DNA from: Chamaesiphon sp. 336R_metabinner_41
Lineage (GTDB): Bacteria; Cyanobacteriota; Cyanobacteriia; Cyanobacteriales; Chamaesiphonaceae
Assembly: GCA_025359915.1 (NCBI GenBank)
Contig: JANYDE010000073.1
Location: 994 to 64,993, forward strand
DNA length: 64,000 bases
Direction of reading: 5' to 3'
The notes beneath the pieces were generated by a model. It was not told the DNA's origin, searched no databases, and saw nothing but the letters and a program-made list of their open reading frames with translations. The first letter of the stretch is position 1. Each line of letters starts with the position of its first letter. Shown here piece after piece: positions 57,797 through 64,000 of this stretch. A program made the position numbers and the translations under genes.

Positions 57797-58676
57797 CGGA
57801 AGGCGGGGCGCAAGCCCCTGACTTCAGGCATGGGGTCGAGCCTGTCGCGACTTCAGTCGCCTTAAAGCGATTCCGCTGCTTTAGCAGCAGTATGCGCTCC
57901 AAGCGTTCTAATAAGCTCCCGTATGACGGCGGTTTTTGCCAAGAAAACTCTGGAGCGAGAGTGGCTGAGTGAAGTCTCAAACATCCCTCTCCAGCAATCT
58001 GTCATCGATCTAGGAATCATCGACTTTGCTACTTTCGATACTGGGGAGAAGATTAAATCTCCTAAGCCTCTCAAGCGAAGACTTAAAAAGCTTCGCAAGG
58101 CACAGCGCAAACACGCTAGAACCACCAAAGGGAGCAAGAGAAGAGAACGGGCGCGGAAACGAGTAGCTAAGGTTCATGCGAAGATTTCCGATGAACGCAC
58201 AAGACTTTTTGCATAAGTTATCAACTAGAATTATTCGTGAAAACCAAACGATAGTTCTTGAAGATCTTGCAGTTTCCAATATGGTGAAAAACCGTAAGTT
58301 GTCTCGTGCTATTTCTGATTTAGGTTGGCGAAGTTTTAGAACTATGCTCGAAGCTAAATCAGTTATGTACGGTAGGGACTTTCGAGTTATTAGCCGATGG
58401 GAACCAACGAGCCAACGATGTTCATGTTGCGGTGAAATTGGCGGTAAGAAAGAGCTTGCTGTCAGAGAATGGGAATGCCTATTTTGCGGTGCCATACACG
58501 ATCGAGACGTTAATGCAGCGGTGAATATCAAAGTTGCGGGTGGATTGCCCGAAACTCTAAACGGACGGGGAGGATCGCGTAAGACTACCACGAAGGTAGC
58601 GGCTTCCTGTGAAGCGTCAACTATCCCATAGGCGCGAGCAACTTTCGTTGTTCCACTAGTCGGAATCCCCTTGCTT
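57797..58676 (+). mobile_element. Internally deleted IS200/IS605 (ISDra2-like) element
   Basis: TTGAC at 57792-57796 precedes GGGGCGCAAGCCCCTGACTTCAGGCATGGGG left-end hairpin; tnpB fragment; right end begins GGAATCCCC at 58662 and is interrupted. Confidence 0.7.
57923..58631 (+). pseudogene. tnpB: tnpB: N-terminus missing, frameshift near 58200
   Basis: IDLG (RuvC-I) in one frame; DFLHK, VLEDL, CSCCG/CLFCG zinc finger and DRDVNAA in another; CGCACAAGAC instead of CGCAAAGAC. Confidence 0.9.
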
Positions 58677-59834
58677 AACGAATCGAGCCGCTTGCGGTGA
58701 GACAGTGTGTGCGATTCGGTGTAGTTGAATCACGGTATCCAGTCCGTAAATAACACTACCAGCCTGGTATCCAGACATGATACAACAGAAGGGCTGAACT
58801 GTCCGAGAAATGTAGGTGAAAGTCCTACCTCTCAAACTCAGAGATGACTCTCTATCTGCCCACACCGACACGACTCGGAATTCGTGAGAGTGAAGCTGGG
58901 AACAGGACGCAATCAGACATCAATTGCAGATGACACTGGCGTTAACGAGGAGTCCCCATGATGAAACCGAGCCTAGAAAAGCAACCTACTCACAGGCAGA
59001 CGCAATCCAAATGTCTGACCTCGCCAGAGAATAGTATCCCGCCGCGCCAGCATTGAGCAACGGTATGAGTATGGGGTTCTGGCGGTTGAATTGGCTACAT
59101 CTAAAGGGACAACCAATCTCTCGGACGGAACGAATAAAAACGTGATTGAGGTCCGTAAGCGGTCGCGCTCACGGTAGACCAGACGAGAGGATTAACCCCT
59201 CAAACACGGGTAGGATTCGGCGTAATTGCCGAAAGGTGTTCAGACTAAACAACTTGGAGTAAATCATGATTAGACGCAGCGTAAATGCTAGCGAATTATG
59301 GAAAAGCTTCAAATGGAAGAAATTCCAGAAGACGCTGTTCCGGTTACAAAAACGAGTTTACAAAGCAGTTTCAGTTGGAAACAAGCGGTTAGCGCGGTCA
59401 CTACAGAAACTAATTCTAAAGTCTCAGTCAGCTAGACTATTAGCGATTCGACAAGTAACGCAGTTAAACGCGGGCAAGAAGACAGCGGGTATTGATGGCA
59501 AAGCGTCACTCTCATTTGAGGAACGCATCGCAATAGCCAACCTACTTGGCTCACATCATACCGACTGGAAGCACGAAAAGCTACGAGAAATCCCAATCCC
59601 TAAAAAGGATGGAACCATCCGTATGTTAAAAGTGCCCACAATAGCAGATAGAGCTTGGCAATGCCTAGCAAAATATGCACTCGAACCAGCGCATGAAGCA
59701 ACATTCCATGCCCGAAGCTATGGGTTCAGAACAGGACGCTCGGCACATGATGCTCAGAAAATCCTCTTCTCAAATCTAAACAGCAAGGCACATGGAAAAG
59801 ATAAGCGAGTAATTGAACTCGATATCGAAAAATG

Positions 59835-62100
59835 GTGCGATTCGTTGGAGATGAATCACGGTGAAAGCCCGTAAATAACCCTCCCAAGCTGGCTACCAGA
59901 CATGTAGCAATATAAGGCTTGAACTGTCCGATTGATGCAGGTGAAAACCCTGCTCTCCAAACTCAGGAGTAACTCCTTATCTGCCCACGATGACCCGACT
60001 CGGAATTCGGGAGGTTTCGTTGCTGGGAACAGGGCTGAATCAGACGCTAATTGCAAGCGACACTGCGGCTAACAGGGAGTCCTCATGGTGAAATAGTGCC
60101 TAGAAAAGCAACCTACGATGAGGCAGTCGCAATTCCTATGACTGACCACGCTAGAGAATAGTATCCCGCCGCGTATCATTTTAACAGCGGTATGAGTAGG
60201 GGGTTCTAGCGGTTGAAGTGGCACCACCTAAAAGGACTATCAATCTTTCGGTCGGAACGAATAAAAACGTACTTGAGGTCTATGAGTGGTCGCACTCATG
60301 GTAAGCCAGACGAGCGGACTAATTCCCCAAGTACGGGTAGGACAGACCGTAATTGGTCTGAGGTATCCAGAACACACAAACAGATGCAGAGCATGATTGG
60401 ACACAGTTTAACAACTAGTGAATCTTGGAGGAAATTACCCTGGAAGCAATTCCGCCGTAATCTCTTTCGCCTACAGAAGCGCGTGTACAAAGCAGTTCAA
60501 GTTGGTAATAAGCGAAAAGCGAGGTCTTTACAGAAACTGATTCTAAAATCTCAAGCAGCCAGATTATTAGCCATTCGACAAGTAACGCAGTTAAATGCTG
60601 GGAAGAAAACAGCAGGTATCGATGGTAAAGCGTCCCTCAATTTTGAAGAACGCCTTACACTAGCCCACGAGCTATCACAACATCATATCAACTGGAAGCA
60701 TCAGGGTTTACGAGAAATCCCCATTCCTAAAAAAGATGGTTCAACTCGAATACTCAAAGTGCCTACAATGGCGGACAGAGCTTGGCAATGCCTCGCAAAA
60801 TACGCCCTCGAACCAGCACATGAAGCAACCTTCCACGCAAAGAGTTATGGATTTAGACCAGGACGCTCTGCACATGATGCACAGAAAATCCTTCAAATAA
60901 ACCTAAACTCTAAAAACAACGGTATCAATAAACGAGTAATCGAATTAGATATCGAGGCATGTTTCGACCGGATTAACCACTCGTCTATCATGGATAACCT
61001 AATTGCCCCTACAGGGCTAAAGCTAGGCATCTTCAGATGTCTTAAAGCTGGAACGAACGTAGGATTCCCAGACCAAGGCACTCCGCAGGGAGGTGTAGTT
61101 AGTCCTCTGCTTGCAAATATTGCACTCAACGGAATCGAAAGTATCCACAGTTATAACACTCGTTATAACAAGAAAGGAATCCCCACAGGAGACCACAAAG
61201 AACCATCAATCCGATACGCGGACGACATGGTTATTATCCTTCGACCCGAAGACAATGCTGAAGCAATACTTAGAGATATTAGCGAATTTTTAGCTGTCAG
61301 GGGGATGAAAGTTAGCGAAAAGAAGACAAAAGTTACAGCAACGATAGATGGTTTTGACTTCCTCGGCTGGAACTTTAAAGTCCAGAAAAACGGCAAGTTT
61401 CGTAGTACGCCTTCTGTGGAGAATTACAAAGCATTCCGCAAGAAGATAAAAACTATCATTAACAACTCAAACTATGGTTCCACACACAAGGCTGGAAAAC
61501 TAGCCCCCGTGGTAAGAGGATGGAGAAATTACCATAAGTACTGCAAGATGGACGGGTCTAGGAACTCCTTGTACTTTATCCAAAAACGGGCTTATTCAGT
61601 ATTTAACAGGGAGTGTAAACAGAATCGCGACAGCAGTAAAAAGTTACTGAACCAAGCGTTTCCAACAGTCTCTTACTCTGAAAATAAACATATCAATGTC
61701 AAGGGCAATAAATCTCCCTACGACGGCGATTTTTCCTACTGGAGCGAACGACACAGTAAACTCTACGACGGAAACACCTCTAAAGCTATCAAAAAGCAAA
61801 ACCGTAAATGTGCAGCCTGTGGATTAACATTCATCGGTGAAGAAAAGGTACATTTACATCATATAGATGGAAACCACAACAATTGGGACAAAAAGAATCT
61901 AGTAGCAATACATGAATCTTGTCACGATTACGTGCATATGAACAACAGGGGAAAAGTAGTTGAAATATACGAACCCTGCTAATCTGAACCTCACATGAGC
62001 AAAGCGCAAGCTTAGGATATCGGGAGCGCAGTGCGATGAAAGTCGCACGCTGCGATCTAACAGAGAGGGGCGAGGTTTAATAGCCTCCCTCGACTCTACC
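59835..62100 (+). mobile_element. Group II intron 2 (complete, nested in the intron 1 RT gene)
   Basis: 5' GTGCG; DV GAGCGCAGTGCGATGAAAGTCGCACGCTGCGATC (62024-62057); DVI ending CGACTCTAC(C); EBS1 CATTTT pairs with AAAATG, EBS2 CGATG with TATCG. Confidence 0.92.
60393..61982 (+). CDS. ltrA: Group II intron RT/maturase with C-terminal HNH endonuclease
   Basis: GTPQGGVVSPLLANI, YADD (61215-61226), FDFLGW, CAACG...HHIDGNH...HESCH; start 60393 inferred from alignment with the intron 1 ORF. Confidence 0.93.
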   Translation: MIGHSLTTSESWRKLPWKQFRRNLFRLQKRVYKAVQVGNKRKARSLQKLILKSQAARLLAIRQVTQLNAGKKTAGIDGKASLNFEERLTLAHELSQHHINWKHQGLREIPIPKKDGSTRILKVPTMADRAWQCLAKYALEPAHEATFHAKSYGFRPGRSAHDAQKILQINLNSKNNGINKRVIELDIEACFDRINHSSIMDNLIAPTGLKLGIFRCLKAGTNVGFPDQGTPQGGVVSPLLANIALNGIESIHSYNTRYNKKGIPTGDHKEPSIRYADDMVIILRPEDNAEAILRDISEFLAVRGMKVSEKKTKVTATIDGFDFLGWNFKVQKNGKFRSTPSVENYKAFRKKIKTIINNSNYGSTHKAGKLAPVVRGWRNYHKYCKMDGSRNSLYFIQKRAYSVFNRECKQNRDSSKKLLNQAFPTVSYSENKHINVKGNKSPYDGDFSYWSERHSKLYDGNTSKAIKKQNRKCAACGLTFIGEEKVHLHHIDGNHNNWDKKNLVAIHESCHDYVHMNNRGKVVEIYEPC

Positions 62101-62168
62101 TTTCGACCGGATTAATCACTCTGCCATCATGGACAATCTTATCGCCCCAGCAGGACTAAAGCTCGGTA

Positions 62169-64000
62169 GCGCGACTTGAACTGGTCGTTTAGTATGTGGA
62201 GCTTACTCCACTAAGGGTTTCACATCCCTTACCCTCACGGAAAAGACTCAATAGAATTGAGTCTGGTCACGCCCAAGTAGGTAACGAAACAGGCGGAGTG
62301 CAGACCCCGAAAGTAACCTTAACTAGTAGCCTAAATTGGTTAAAGAGCAAGAGGGAGTTATCCCATGATAAACACAAGTGAATTGTCATTTTTAAACTGC
62401 GTTATTTTAGAAGGAGTCAAATAAGGCTGATAGACTCTAACCAAAACGGTAAATGGGTAAAACTTAATGCTTATCGATCATTAAGTTATGTGAATAAAAT
62501 TCCCATCGCAGAAAAGACAATATCTAAAGGATAACAGAAAACTAAATGACACAACAAGGTAAACCCTACAGAGTCTAGAGAAGGTCGAATATCTCTAGTA
62601 AGCCAACCGCAAGGAAGGCAGAACTCTCTGGAGGGTAGAGGATGGATGAGAAAGCAAATGCTGGTTTGTAATGAACTAGATAGAGGTCAACATACCTCTG
62701 ACCGAAAGGAATAGCAGACTTCATCTGGGTCTTATACGAAAGACAAAAATGTCAAAGAAACTAAATCCGAGGATAAGTTAGATGCAGACAATCATGTCTA
62801 CAAACGGACTAAAGAAACAGCTAGAAAACTGGAGCCATATTAAGTGGAAGAAAGTCAACAAGCTAGTTAAGAATCTACGACAACGAATCTTTCGTGCTAG
62901 AAAACTTGGTAACTTCAAAGCTCTTCGGAGTCTACAGAAGTTAATGCAACGAAGCTACGCCAACTTATTATTATCTGTTCGACGCATTACTCAGACCAAC
63001 AAAGGTAAAGCAACGGCAGGAATTGATAGAGAAATCATCAATACCCCAGAGCAACGAGTAATTCTGGTAAATGGATGGAAAGGGGGAAACCTCAAACCCA
63101 CCCGACGGGTAGAAATACCTAAGCCTAATGGTAAGAAACGACCGCTCGGAATCCCAACCGTGCGTGACAGAATCGAACAGGCAATAATTATGAACTCTCT
63201 AGAACCTGAATGGGAAAGCGTGTTTGAACCCAATTCCTATGGATTCAGACCAGGTAGAAGCTGTCAAGATGCTATCGAACAAAACTGGAAAAGATTAAAC
63301 TCAAATCCAAAAGGTAGTAGAGACACATGGGTTCTAGAAGCTGATATTCGAGGATTCTTTGACAATATTGAACATGAATCTATCCTTAATCTGATTAGTA
63401 ATTTCCCAAAAAGACATCTAATCAAAGGATGGTTGAAAGCTGGATTTGTCTTTGATGGAAGATTCAATCCGACAGAGATGGGTACACCACAAGGAGGGGT
63501 GATTTCACCTCTTCTAGCCAACATTGGACTGCATGGACTAGAAATTTACATAAAATCCACCAATCCCAAATTAGGTGTGGTTAGATACGCTGACGATTTC
63601 ATTGTCACAGCTAGAGACAAAGGAAGTCTCGAAAAAGCCCAAATCCAGATCCAACAATGGCTGTCAAAGCGAGGACTCGAACTAAGCGCGGAGAAGACGC
63701 TAATAACGTCAATAGAAGAAGGATTCGATTTTCTTGGATTTAACCATCGCCATTATAATGGCAAGCTTTTAATTAAACCTTCTAAGAAGAAAGTATTAGA
63801 CTTTTGCAAACGGTTAGGTAAAGAAATAAAAGTCCTGTACGGAACAAAACAAGAAGACGTAATCTCTAAATTAAATCCAATTCTCCGTGGGTTCGCCAAC
63901 TACTACAAAGGTGCGGTCAGCAAAGAAACCTTCAGTTACATCTCATCAAGAGTGTGGAGATACCTTTGGTGTTGGTCAAAGCGTAGGCACCCCAACAAAA
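62169..64000 (+). mobile_element. Group II intron 3 (nested in the intron 1 RT gene; runs off the window)
   Basis: 5' GCGCGAC variant; stem AACTTAATG/CATTAAGTT with loop TATCGA (62472-77) pairing with IBS1 TCGGTA (62163-68). Confidence 0.82.
62794..64000 (+). CDS. ltrA: Group II intron RT/maturase (partial; absent from the ORF track because there is no stop in the window)
   Basis: Hand translation open for 402 codons: KRPLGIPTVRDR, SYGFRPGRS, EADIRGFFDNI, GTPQGGVISPLLANI, YADD (63586-63597), GFDFLGF. Confidence 0.92.
   Translation, partial: MSTNGLKKQLENWSHIKWKKVNKLVKNLRQRIFRARKLGNFKALRSLQKLMQRSYANLLLSVRRITQTNKGKATAGIDREIINTPEQRVILVNGWKGGNLKPTRRVEIPKPNGKKRPLGIPTVRDRIEQAIIMNSLEPEWESVFEPNSYGFRPGRSCQDAIEQNWKRLNSNPKGSRDTWVLEADIRGFFDNIEHESILNLISNFPKRHLIKGWLKAGFVFDGRFNPTEMGTPQGGVISPLLANIGLHGLEIYIKSTNPKLGVVRYADDFIVTARDKGSLEKAQIQIQQWLSKRGLELSAEKTLITSIEEGFDFLGFNHRHYNGKLLIKPSKKKVLDFCKRLGKEIKVLYGTKQEDVISKLNPILRGFANYYKGAVSKETFSYISSRVWRYLWCWSKRRHPNK

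Follow-up and report, generated by a model that had tools for sequence, protein, structure and literature searches.

Does a group II intron whose reverse transcriptase (RT) gene has been entered by two further introns remain a working element, or has it become a landing place for mobile DNA? The question arises at the 3' end of the window, i.e. the whole 64,000-nucleotide stretch that we analysed, where the first-pass annotation proposed a three-member nest made of one outer RT-encoding intron and two different, intact-looking RT-encoding guests 68 nucleotides apart. All features of this nest were found where they had been placed. We regard the locus as very probably a pile-up of mobile elements within non-coding DNA of a probable Chamaesiphon genome, in which guests homed into the outer RT gene (RT1) and an IS630-family element truncated the outer intron. 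The contig (C29; contig coordinate = window coordinate + 993) continues for 847 nucleotides beyond position 64000, and positions in this extension are given as window equivalents. The features are as follows.

58697 to 58708, plus strand: 5' exon of intron 1, with IBS2 GTGAG (58697-58701), a spacer A and IBS1 CAGTGT (58703-58708)
58709 to 59834, plus strand: 5' part of intron 1, with a GTGCG start, domains I-III (58709-59265) and RT1 codons 1-189 (59266-59834)
58989-58993 (EBS2 CTCAC), 59050-59055 (EBS1 GCATTG) and 59091 (EBS3 T), plus strand: exon-binding sites of intron 1
59835 to 62100, plus strand: intron 2 (guest 1), 2266 nucleotides, with a GTGCG 5' end, Rfam domains V/VI and Pfam RT domains
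60116-60120 (EBS2 CGATG), 60177-60182 (EBS1 CATTTT) and 60218 (EBS3 G), plus strand: exon-binding sites of intron 2
60396 to 61982, plus strand: RT2 ORF, 528 amino acids, with RVT_N, RVT_1 and GIIM by Pfam and YADD present
62101 to 62168, plus strand: middle RT1 piece, 68 nucleotides (..FDRINHSAIMDNLIAPAGLKLG..) between the guests, continuing the frame of 59266-59834 and corresponding, colinearly, to RT2 residues 190-211
62169 to 64524, plus strand: intron 3 (guest 2), 2356 nucleotides, of which the window holds 62169 to 64000, with a GCGCG 5' end, RT3 and domains V/VI
62405-62410 (EBS2 TTTTAG) and 62472-62477 (EBS1 TATCGA), plus strand: exon-binding sites of intron 3
62782 to 64443, plus strand: RT3, a complete ORF of 553 amino acids, with RVT_N, RVT_1, GIIM and HNH by Pfam
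64447 to 64524, plus strand: domains V/VI of intron 3 (RF00029, 42.7 bits, cut-off 40)
64525 to 64709, plus strand: third RT1 piece (IFRCLKAG...YADDMVI), beyond the window
64710 to the contig end at 64847: IS630-family element, its left end directly after RT1 at TA

The 5' exon of intron 1 is non-coding, and a degraded TnpB (IS605 OrfB) gene, with remnants recognized by Pfam at 57923-58631, lies just upstream. The two IBS elements pair with the intron's own exon-binding sites (GTGAG with CTCAC, CAGTGT with GCATTG), and these pairings covary across the family. Compared with 15 family copies, the 5' part of intron 1 is colinear and free of large indels; its RT1 ORF (59266-59834) matches RVT_N at 1e-29 and RVT_1 at 2e-10 in Pfam. 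The closest relative, L008, belongs to a congener and is an uninterrupted intron of 2235 nucleotides with an intact RT of 524 amino acids; the 5' part of intron 1 is 90% identical to it.

Intron 2 cuts the RT1 ORF between 59834 and 59835, so that the proposed break of RT1 at 59834, with GTGCG as the start of the guest, was confirmed, as was the in-frame resumption at 62101-62168. It belongs to the same family as intron 1 (75% nucleotide identity) and pairs with the adjacent RT1 sequence through all three exon-binding sites: CATTTT with AAAATG (59829-59834), CGATG with TATCG (59823-59827) and G60218 with T62101. RT2 scores 284 bits against TIGR04416, slightly below the cut-off of 300, and its C-terminus is HNH-like on reading the sequence, without a Pfam call. 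Domains V/VI were aligned to RF00029 at 62022-62099 (51.7 bits, cut-off 40), the feature being taken to 62100, and the basal helix of domain VI covaries among copies (AGAG/CUCU, UGAG/CUCA, UGGG/CCCA). Termini and domains V/VI, EBS/IBS pairing and an intron-encoded protein, as expected of a mobile group II intron, are thus all present.

We considered an intron 2 end at 62099, where the Rfam alignment stops (..CUCUAC), and rejected it, since the extra C left in RT1 would bring a stop five codons on. C62100 was assigned to intron 2 because only then does the RT1 frame close, and because EBS3 covariation and the empty-site sequences, which lack this additional C, agree; the resulting 3' tail is ACC rather than the usual AY. 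The EBS3 column in domain I (GTTGAA[N]TGGC) pairs with the base after the terminal pyrimidine in all nine of nine family copies, and in a label-shuffle test 9 of 3000 shuffles did equally well.

Intron 3 represents a different lineage, RT3 being 33% identical to RT2. Its start with GCGCG at 62169 and its open RT from 62782 had been proposed from the window, and RT3 proved to be complete past the window's end, scoring 341 bits against TIGR04416 (over the cut-off of 300). Its target lies within the 68-nucleotide RT1 piece, with IBS2 CTAAAG at 62156-62161 and IBS1 TCGGTA at 62163-62168, and intron 3 cuts RT1 after 62168. The pairing partners are TATCGA and TCGGTA on the one hand, TTTTAG and CTAAAG on the other, and both pairings covary among 9-10 copies of the family; the EBS2 at 62405-62410, put forward as a mere candidate, gains support from its covariation with CTAAAG. 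Domains V/VI, which had been expected beyond the window, were found there, and six copies share the 3' end (..ACCCGAC), which is followed by a variable base. The 5' end departs from GUGYG by a change of U2 to C. GCGCG was found at 19 of the 23 5' ends that represent this family in other cyanobacteria and at seven of the ten readable 5' ends from genomes of the same order; judged by these sequences, it characterizes the lineage and does not reflect damage. Intron 3 has domains V/VI, pairs with its exon through EBS and IBS, and encodes a full RT-X-En protein.

RT2 and RT3 are both full length with YADD, and the nearest solved structure for both is the Thermosynechococcus elongatus (T. elongatus) intron maturase 6ME0 (2.7e-129 for RT3). 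The Rfam models for domains I-IV gave no match for introns 1-3, even at E <= 0.1, so that a class assignment based on Rfam is not possible for these introns.

If the two guests are insertions, their removal should give back the outer sequence. The first-pass annotation had predicted the bases at which RT1 would resume past 64 kb (TC TTC..., IFRCLKAG-like), and RT1 does resume at exactly these bases (TC TTC CGA...): the sequence at 64525 is TCTTCCGATGTCTAAAAGCTGG, translated as IFRCLKAG. Joining 59266-59834, 62101-62168 and 64525-64709 yields 822 nucleotides, or 274 stop-free codons. The joined RT1 aligns with RT2 without a gap at either junction, the sole gap being a 7-amino-acid indel upstream of YADD, and it is also colinear with the 524-amino-acid RT of L008. 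Removal of the guests therefore restores the outer sequence, with junctions that match uninterrupted family copies, including L008; the equivalent empty sites in uninterrupted relatives read GATATCGAAAAATG/TTT for intron 2 and ACTAAAACTCGGTA/TCT for intron 3, the slash marking the insertion point. The homologous sites in RT2 are GAGGCATG/T and CTAGGCA/T, which are predicted to be non-targets for the guests.

We considered the possibility that intron copies were misjoined by the assembler or shuffled by recombination, without any nesting by homing. The assembly is indeed a draft of 169 contigs, many of which end in repeats, and several broken copies of the family exist in it (on contigs C140, C129 and C162). 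Yet both pairs of junctions fall exactly at intron termini, EBS1, EBS2 and EBS3 of each guest pair with adjacent RT1 bases, and the frame recovered upon guest removal is gap-free. Furthermore, intron 3 has no similarity to RT1 that could mislead an assembler, and the identity between introns 1 and 2 is just 75%. In both families, EBS1 and EBS2 fit the 5' exon of the same copy far better than they fit the exons of other copies (0 of 5000 permutations in each of four tests), which bears out the earlier reading that the exon-binding sites fit their flanks. Because EBS1, EBS2 and EBS3 of both families covary with their flanking exons, the guest insertions are to be seen as retrohoming events rather than as an assembly chimera, for which we see hardly any chance at all.

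Another reading was that of a living three-step twintron, in which an intact outer maturase would be made once the guests had been spliced out, and intron 1 would still be a mobile element. The RT1 pieces are open and undecayed across 274 codons, domains I-III being intact as well, and both guests look splicing-competent in their sequences. Yet RT1 is broken between 64709 and 64710, after YADDMVI, by an IS630-family element within which the contig stops; this junction, at the contig end, is seen in the assembly sequence. Elsewhere in the genome, left ends of the same IS630 type follow TA 11 times, ten of these at contig ends; the genome holds about 12 copies, and a complete copy measures 1084 bp and encodes an HTH + DDE_3 transposase. 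Maturase function and mobility depend on the thumb/X and En regions, which lie past the cut, and a direct continuation of RT1 past the element is absent from all 169 contigs; none of these is shorter than 2.1 kb, so that a small fragment flanked by two IS copies could have been lost to filtering. Domains V/VI of intron 1 were not found in the sequence up to the contig end, 847 nucleotides past the window. As far as the contig goes, intron 1 thus has neither all of ribozyme domains I-VI nor an unbroken ORF for its protein. The claim of the first-pass annotation that the outer maturase can be made after two internal splicing events does not hold, since RT1 is truncated by the IS and intron 1 therefore cannot make its own maturase. 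A working twintron of this kind is accordingly very improbable.

Where, then, is the 3' part of intron 1? C140 was rejected as its 3' end, as about 25 codons overlap RT1 with a different sequence and the contig carries another type of IS right end. By its sequence, C140 may belong instead with the 5' fragment on C162, whose EBS3 G fits the +1 C of C140. Another possibility is that the outer intron is not fully dead, its domains V/VI being on C129 and RT2 promoting splicing in trans, so that the nest would be removable or mobile as a composite. C129 starts with a matching IS630 right end and TA; next come the C-terminal part of an RT and domains V/VI, which are intact and score 58.3 bits. L008 is the closest relative of both the C129 fragment and the 5' part of intron 1, the exon that follows the fragment begins with A, as EBS3 of intron 1 (T59091) would require, and orientation and reading frame agree; trans-acting intron proteins are, moreover, documented in T. 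elongatus (PMC2882425). Against this, the link is absent from the assembly, about 365 nucleotides of RT1 (corresponding to RT2 residues ~281-401) are missing between the two ends, and there are ten other right ends of the same IS type. Synteny upstream of purL differs in every relative and hence provides no confirmation. We consider this possibility rather unlikely, though it deserves more credit than a working twintron.

We return to the reading of the locus as a pile-up. Its boundaries, the colinearity, the pairings and the IS cut are seen directly in the sequence, whereas the order of events, the splicing of the guests and what became of the 3' end of intron 1 are inferred. The order would be the following. 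An RT-encoding intron 1 would first have inserted beside a decayed IS200/IS605 element. Two independent retrohoming events would later have struck RT1, one by intron 2, a diverged member of its own family, and one, 68 nucleotides downstream, by intron 3, an unrelated endonuclease-encoding lineage, each guest presumably picking its site through base pairing of EBS1, EBS2 and EBS3 with RT1. The IS630-family element would have inserted, later or earlier, at the TA just past the YADD codons of RT1. Introns 2 and 3, which look intact, would be expected to leave a transcript with the help of the proteins that they encode, joining the RT1 pieces precisely. Intron 1 would now be a relic and a harmless landing pad for its guests.

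Earlier work has described group II introns in nests, introns that home into the ORFs of other introns, and intron ORFs broken by an IS. In Methanosarcina acetivorans, up to five introns are nested, with homing into intron ORFs (Dai & Zimmerly 2003, as summarised in Zimmerly & Semper 2015, PMC4424553). That system and ours share non-coding flanking exons, which make the nest a cost-free homing site for the host, whereas the present nest is cyanobacterial rather than archaeal, its guests are neighbours within a single host ORF and not nested in each other, both have full RT-X-En ORFs, and the outer ORF is also broken by an IS. In T. elongatus (Mohr, Ghanem & Lambowitz 2010, PMC2882425), five twintrons consist of TeI3a-e inside TeI4a-e, one IS-interrupted ORF is known (TeI4g::ISEL2f) and F4 introns target ISEL1. 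This cyanobacterial family resembles ours in having inner introns in the outer ORF with good EBS/IBS pairing and one intron ORF broken by an IS, and some of its introns reside in an IS200-family element. Its guests, however, are ORF-less and all lie at one site between the first two ATGs, so that the outer protein can still be made from the second ATG, whereas each guest of the present nest has a protein of its own and disrupts RT1 in the palm region, from motif 3 on. Trichodesmium erythraeum likewise carries a multi-intron twintron, for which sequential splicing was demonstrated (Pfreundt & Hess 2015, PMC4649490); that nest sits in a conserved protein-coding gene and splicing restores the host mRNA, whereas in the nest reported here no host gene is at stake and splicing is a prediction. 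To call two intact guests 'uncommon', as was done initially, is a fair description, but the arrangement itself is on record (PMC2882425 and PMC4424553).

Knowledge of twintrons is thus unchanged by this locus, the outer intron being a relic with no host gene relying on its splicing. It provides, nonetheless, a clean, base-exact example of mobile introns piling up, in which each insertion is accounted for by the exon-binding code; a draft assembly with relatives sufficed to confirm what had been predicted from the bare sequence. Standard intron-finding pipelines reportedly overlook the outer introns of twintrons (PMC8919778), and intron counts in cyanobacteria may therefore be underestimates.

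Of wider interest is the pattern of one intron lineage repeatedly targeting another family at many sites. Among 12 copies of the intron 3 lineage examined in the same order, four lie in RT ORFs: the one at the present locus and intron-3-like introns inside family RT ORFs in genomes G004, G024 and G056. Across cyanobacteria (Nostoc, Microcoleus, Tolypothrix, Pelatocladus, Dolichospermum and others), the lineage was found inside another intron at 15 of 32 assessable loci. Within introns of the intron 1/2 family, it recurrently occupies the terminal loop of domain VI; further sites comprise at least two in domain I, a domain V tetraloop and three in RT ORFs. The chances appear about even that this lineage, recognizable by its GCGCG start and by an RT that comes nearest to the T. 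elongatus CL-type maturase, lives across cyanobacteria largely by parasitizing other group II introns. If so, retargeting to many sites of a single prey family would exceed the single-site cases described so far, and composite twintrons would possibly have spread as units. In G030, a candidate second intron at the intron 2 site turned out to be an IS, not an intron, and in G020 an intron of another class was found inserted in YADD/M.

The contig carrying the window, C29 (where the window spans 994-64993), extends 847 nt beyond the window's end in a draft genome of 4.23 Mb and 169 contigs. We followed the locus across this boundary, numbering onward from 64,000. The first-pass annotation had described a reverse transcriptase (RT) ORF of an outer group II intron broken at 59834 by a GTGCG intron, resumed at 62101-62168 and followed by a GCGCG intron, all of which is present. 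The extension completed RT3 and supplied domain V/VI of intron 3.

Features of the nest (forward strand, window numbering)
58709: GTGCG 5' end of intron 1, followed by about 560 nt of ribozyme sequence before the RT ORF
58989-58993 and 59050-59055: intron 1 EBS2 (CTCAC, pairing with GTGAG) and EBS1 (GCATTG, with CAGTGT)
59266-59834: first piece of the RT1 ORF, which opens at 59266 (Pfam RVT_N 1e-29, RVT_1 2e-10)
59835-62100: intron 2, encoding RT2 (528 aa; Pfam RVT_N, RVT_1, GIIM)
60116-60120 and 60177-60182: intron 2 EBS2 (CGATG, with TATCG) and EBS1 (CATTTT, with AAAATG)
62022-62099: intron 2 domain V/VI (Rfam, 51.7 bits; cut-off 40)
62101-62168: second piece, 68 nt, which continues RT1
62169-64524: intron 3, with GCGCG at 62169, encoding RT3 (553 aa, complete beyond the window; TIGR04416 341 bits, cut-off 300; RVT_N, RVT_1, GIIM, HNH)
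62405-62410 and 62472-62477: intron 3 EBS2 (TTTTAG, with CTAAAG) and EBS1 (TATCGA, with TCGGTA)
64447-64524: intron 3 domain V/VI (42.7 bits)
64525-64709: third piece of RT1

The resumption of RT1 that had been predicted beyond intron 3 was found directly after ..ACCCGAC, as TCTTCCGATGTCTAAAAGCTGG (IFRCLKAG). Joining 59266-59834, 62101-62168 and 64525-64709 gave 822 nt without a stop, and the product aligned with RT2 without gaps at both junctions. An uninterrupted intron 1-like element of 2235 nt with a 524-aa RT is known in a congener (L008).

The Rfam model for intron 2 ends at ..CUCUAC (62099), and the RT1 frame closes only with C62100 intronic. An end at 62099 was rejected, as C62100 left in RT1 leads to a stop five codons on. 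In each of 15 family 3' ends, A(C/A) was followed by a pyrimidine (C in 13, T in 2) and then by a variable base. The domain I column N of GTTGAA[N]TGGC paired with this variable base in all nine copies having both ends, while 9/9 pairing at any column was matched by only 9 of 3000 label shuffles. We read N as EBS3, with the variable base acting as IBS3, which places the end of intron 2 at 62100. The homologous place in uninterrupted family copies reads GATATCGAAAAATG followed by TTT, without the extra C. In six copies of the intron 3 family the 3' end reads ..ACC(C/T)(G/A)AC, and the base next to it varies. CL-type class names are applied to the introns tentatively, by resemblance to the T. 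elongatus maturase structure 6ME0 and not from phylogeny.

We considered the possibility that the nest was an assembly chimera or a recombination mosaic. In alignments drawn from the source genome and relatives (intron 1/2 family, 16 copies; intron 3 family, 11 copies), both families showed two variable loops that pair with the last 6 nt of their own 5' exon and the 5-6 nt or so before these. Pairing with own exons averaged 5.3, 4.4, 5.2 and 4.8 bp, where the exons of other copies gave means of 3.1-3.4, and the observed match was reached by none of 5000 permutations in each of the four tests. This includes EBS2 of intron 3, until then a candidate. That introns 2 and 3 pair with the RT1 sequence flanking them speaks against a chimera or mosaic and shows that both arrived in RT1 by retrohoming. 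The nest itself, as read from the sequence, is real.

The outer maturase had been expected to be made after two internal splicing events. Yet, at 64709/64710, RT1 (..RYADDMVI) abuts AGTACCTAGACG.., 138 nt before the end of C29. The sequence met here is the left end of an element of 1084 bp that is always preceded by TA; the genome has it at 12 places, 11 of which are contig ends. The single full assembly, on C9, codes for an HTH and DDE_3 transposase, and these features are those of the IS630 family. No direct continuation of RT1 past 64709 was found in any of the 169 contigs, none of which is shorter than 2.1 kb, so that a short RT1 piece between repeats could be absent from the assembly. Since RT1 is cut and no contig continues it, two splicing events cannot restore the outer maturase; the nest stands, and intron 1 is, to judge from this assembly, a relic.

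A candidate for the 3' end of intron 1 lies on contig C129, which opens with the matching IS right end and TA. Next come the C-terminal part of an RT, from RT2 residue 402 on, then domains V/VI in intact form (58.3 bits) and the sequence upstream of purL. L008 is the closest relative of both this fragment (85% identity) and the 5' part of intron 1 (90%), and shares a distinctive protein C-terminus with the fragment. The orientation, reading frame and first exon base (A, facing EBS3 T59091) are all compatible with intron 1. We somewhat favour the link; it would imply that about 365 nt were deleted internally, or that there are two IS copies and the assembly has lost the piece between them. Upstream of purL, no relative shares the same region, so synteny is uninformative on this point. 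purL itself (C129, from about 781) contains an apparent, putative intein-like insert (..GNCLIGTETFVWRDKQGINFDTIGNFV..).

Intron 2 is the sole full-length member of its family in the genome. Four further copies are broken (C129:1-623; C140 reverse strand 1-1087; C162:10854-11322; C68:6421-6453), two of them by IS630-type elements. The C162 copy lacks an internal stretch reaching from domain I into its RT ORF; with its EBS3 G, it may form one further intron with C140 (+1 C). A third intact intron RT type (C131:7549-9249), 35-38% identical to RT2 and RT3 and accompanied by its own domain V/VI match (48.5 bits), brings the genome to at least three intron lineages.

Related insertions occur in relatives. 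In same-order relatives, intron 3-like introns occupy three RT-ORF sites (L010, L045, L049). Two of these, in further genomes of this genus (G004, G024), interrupt family RT ORFs between ..AWQCLA and K; the third splits another intron's ORF between ..NLIYW and S in G056, which belongs to a different family of the order, and there the frame is restored. In other cyanobacteria, the lineage (5' GCGCG) is nested within another group II intron at 15 of 32 loci with readable flanks (L056-L102). Its sites are the terminal loop of domain VI, in intron 1/2-family introns of Nostoc, Microcoleus, Pelatocladus, Tolypothrix and Dolichospermum, no fewer than two positions in domain I, and a domain V GAAA tetraloop. 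The lineage has the look of an intron hunter. In the complete genome G020 (C1, L014), also of this genus, a family RT is interrupted between GATGACA and TGG (YADD and M) by an intron belonging to another Rfam class, group-II-D1D4-2, again with the frame restored. In G030:C2 (L013), an IS interrupts a family RT at EKCFD, within a few nt of the intron 2 site.

Bacterial twintrons have been described as intergenic; in M. acetivorans, as many as five introns are nested through repeated homing into other introns, and the nests serve as perpetual homing sites (Zimmerly & Semper, PMC4424553). In T. elongatus, the guests of five twintrons lie in the outer ORF, and an IS has broken one intron ORF (Mohr et al., PMC2882425). 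Sequential splicing was shown for a Trichodesmium twintron (Pfreundt & Hess, PMC4649490). Every component of the locus thus has a precedent; it is somewhat unusual for a single RT gene to host, next to each other, two different guests that each bear an ORF and encode an endonuclease. Upstream, a frameshifted, N-terminally truncated TnpB gene (within 57923-58708; IS605 OrfB and Cas12f-like TNB) ends 77 nt before intron 1, which thus lies in or adjoins an IS200/IS605 element at its right end, much as the T. elongatus F4 introns target an IS200-family element (PMC2882425).

Elsewhere in the window, 20993-21052 matches Rfam NsiR1 (56.2 bits; cut-off 39). NsiR1 is a heterocyst-associated sRNA family; Chamaesiphon is not a genus known for heterocysts.
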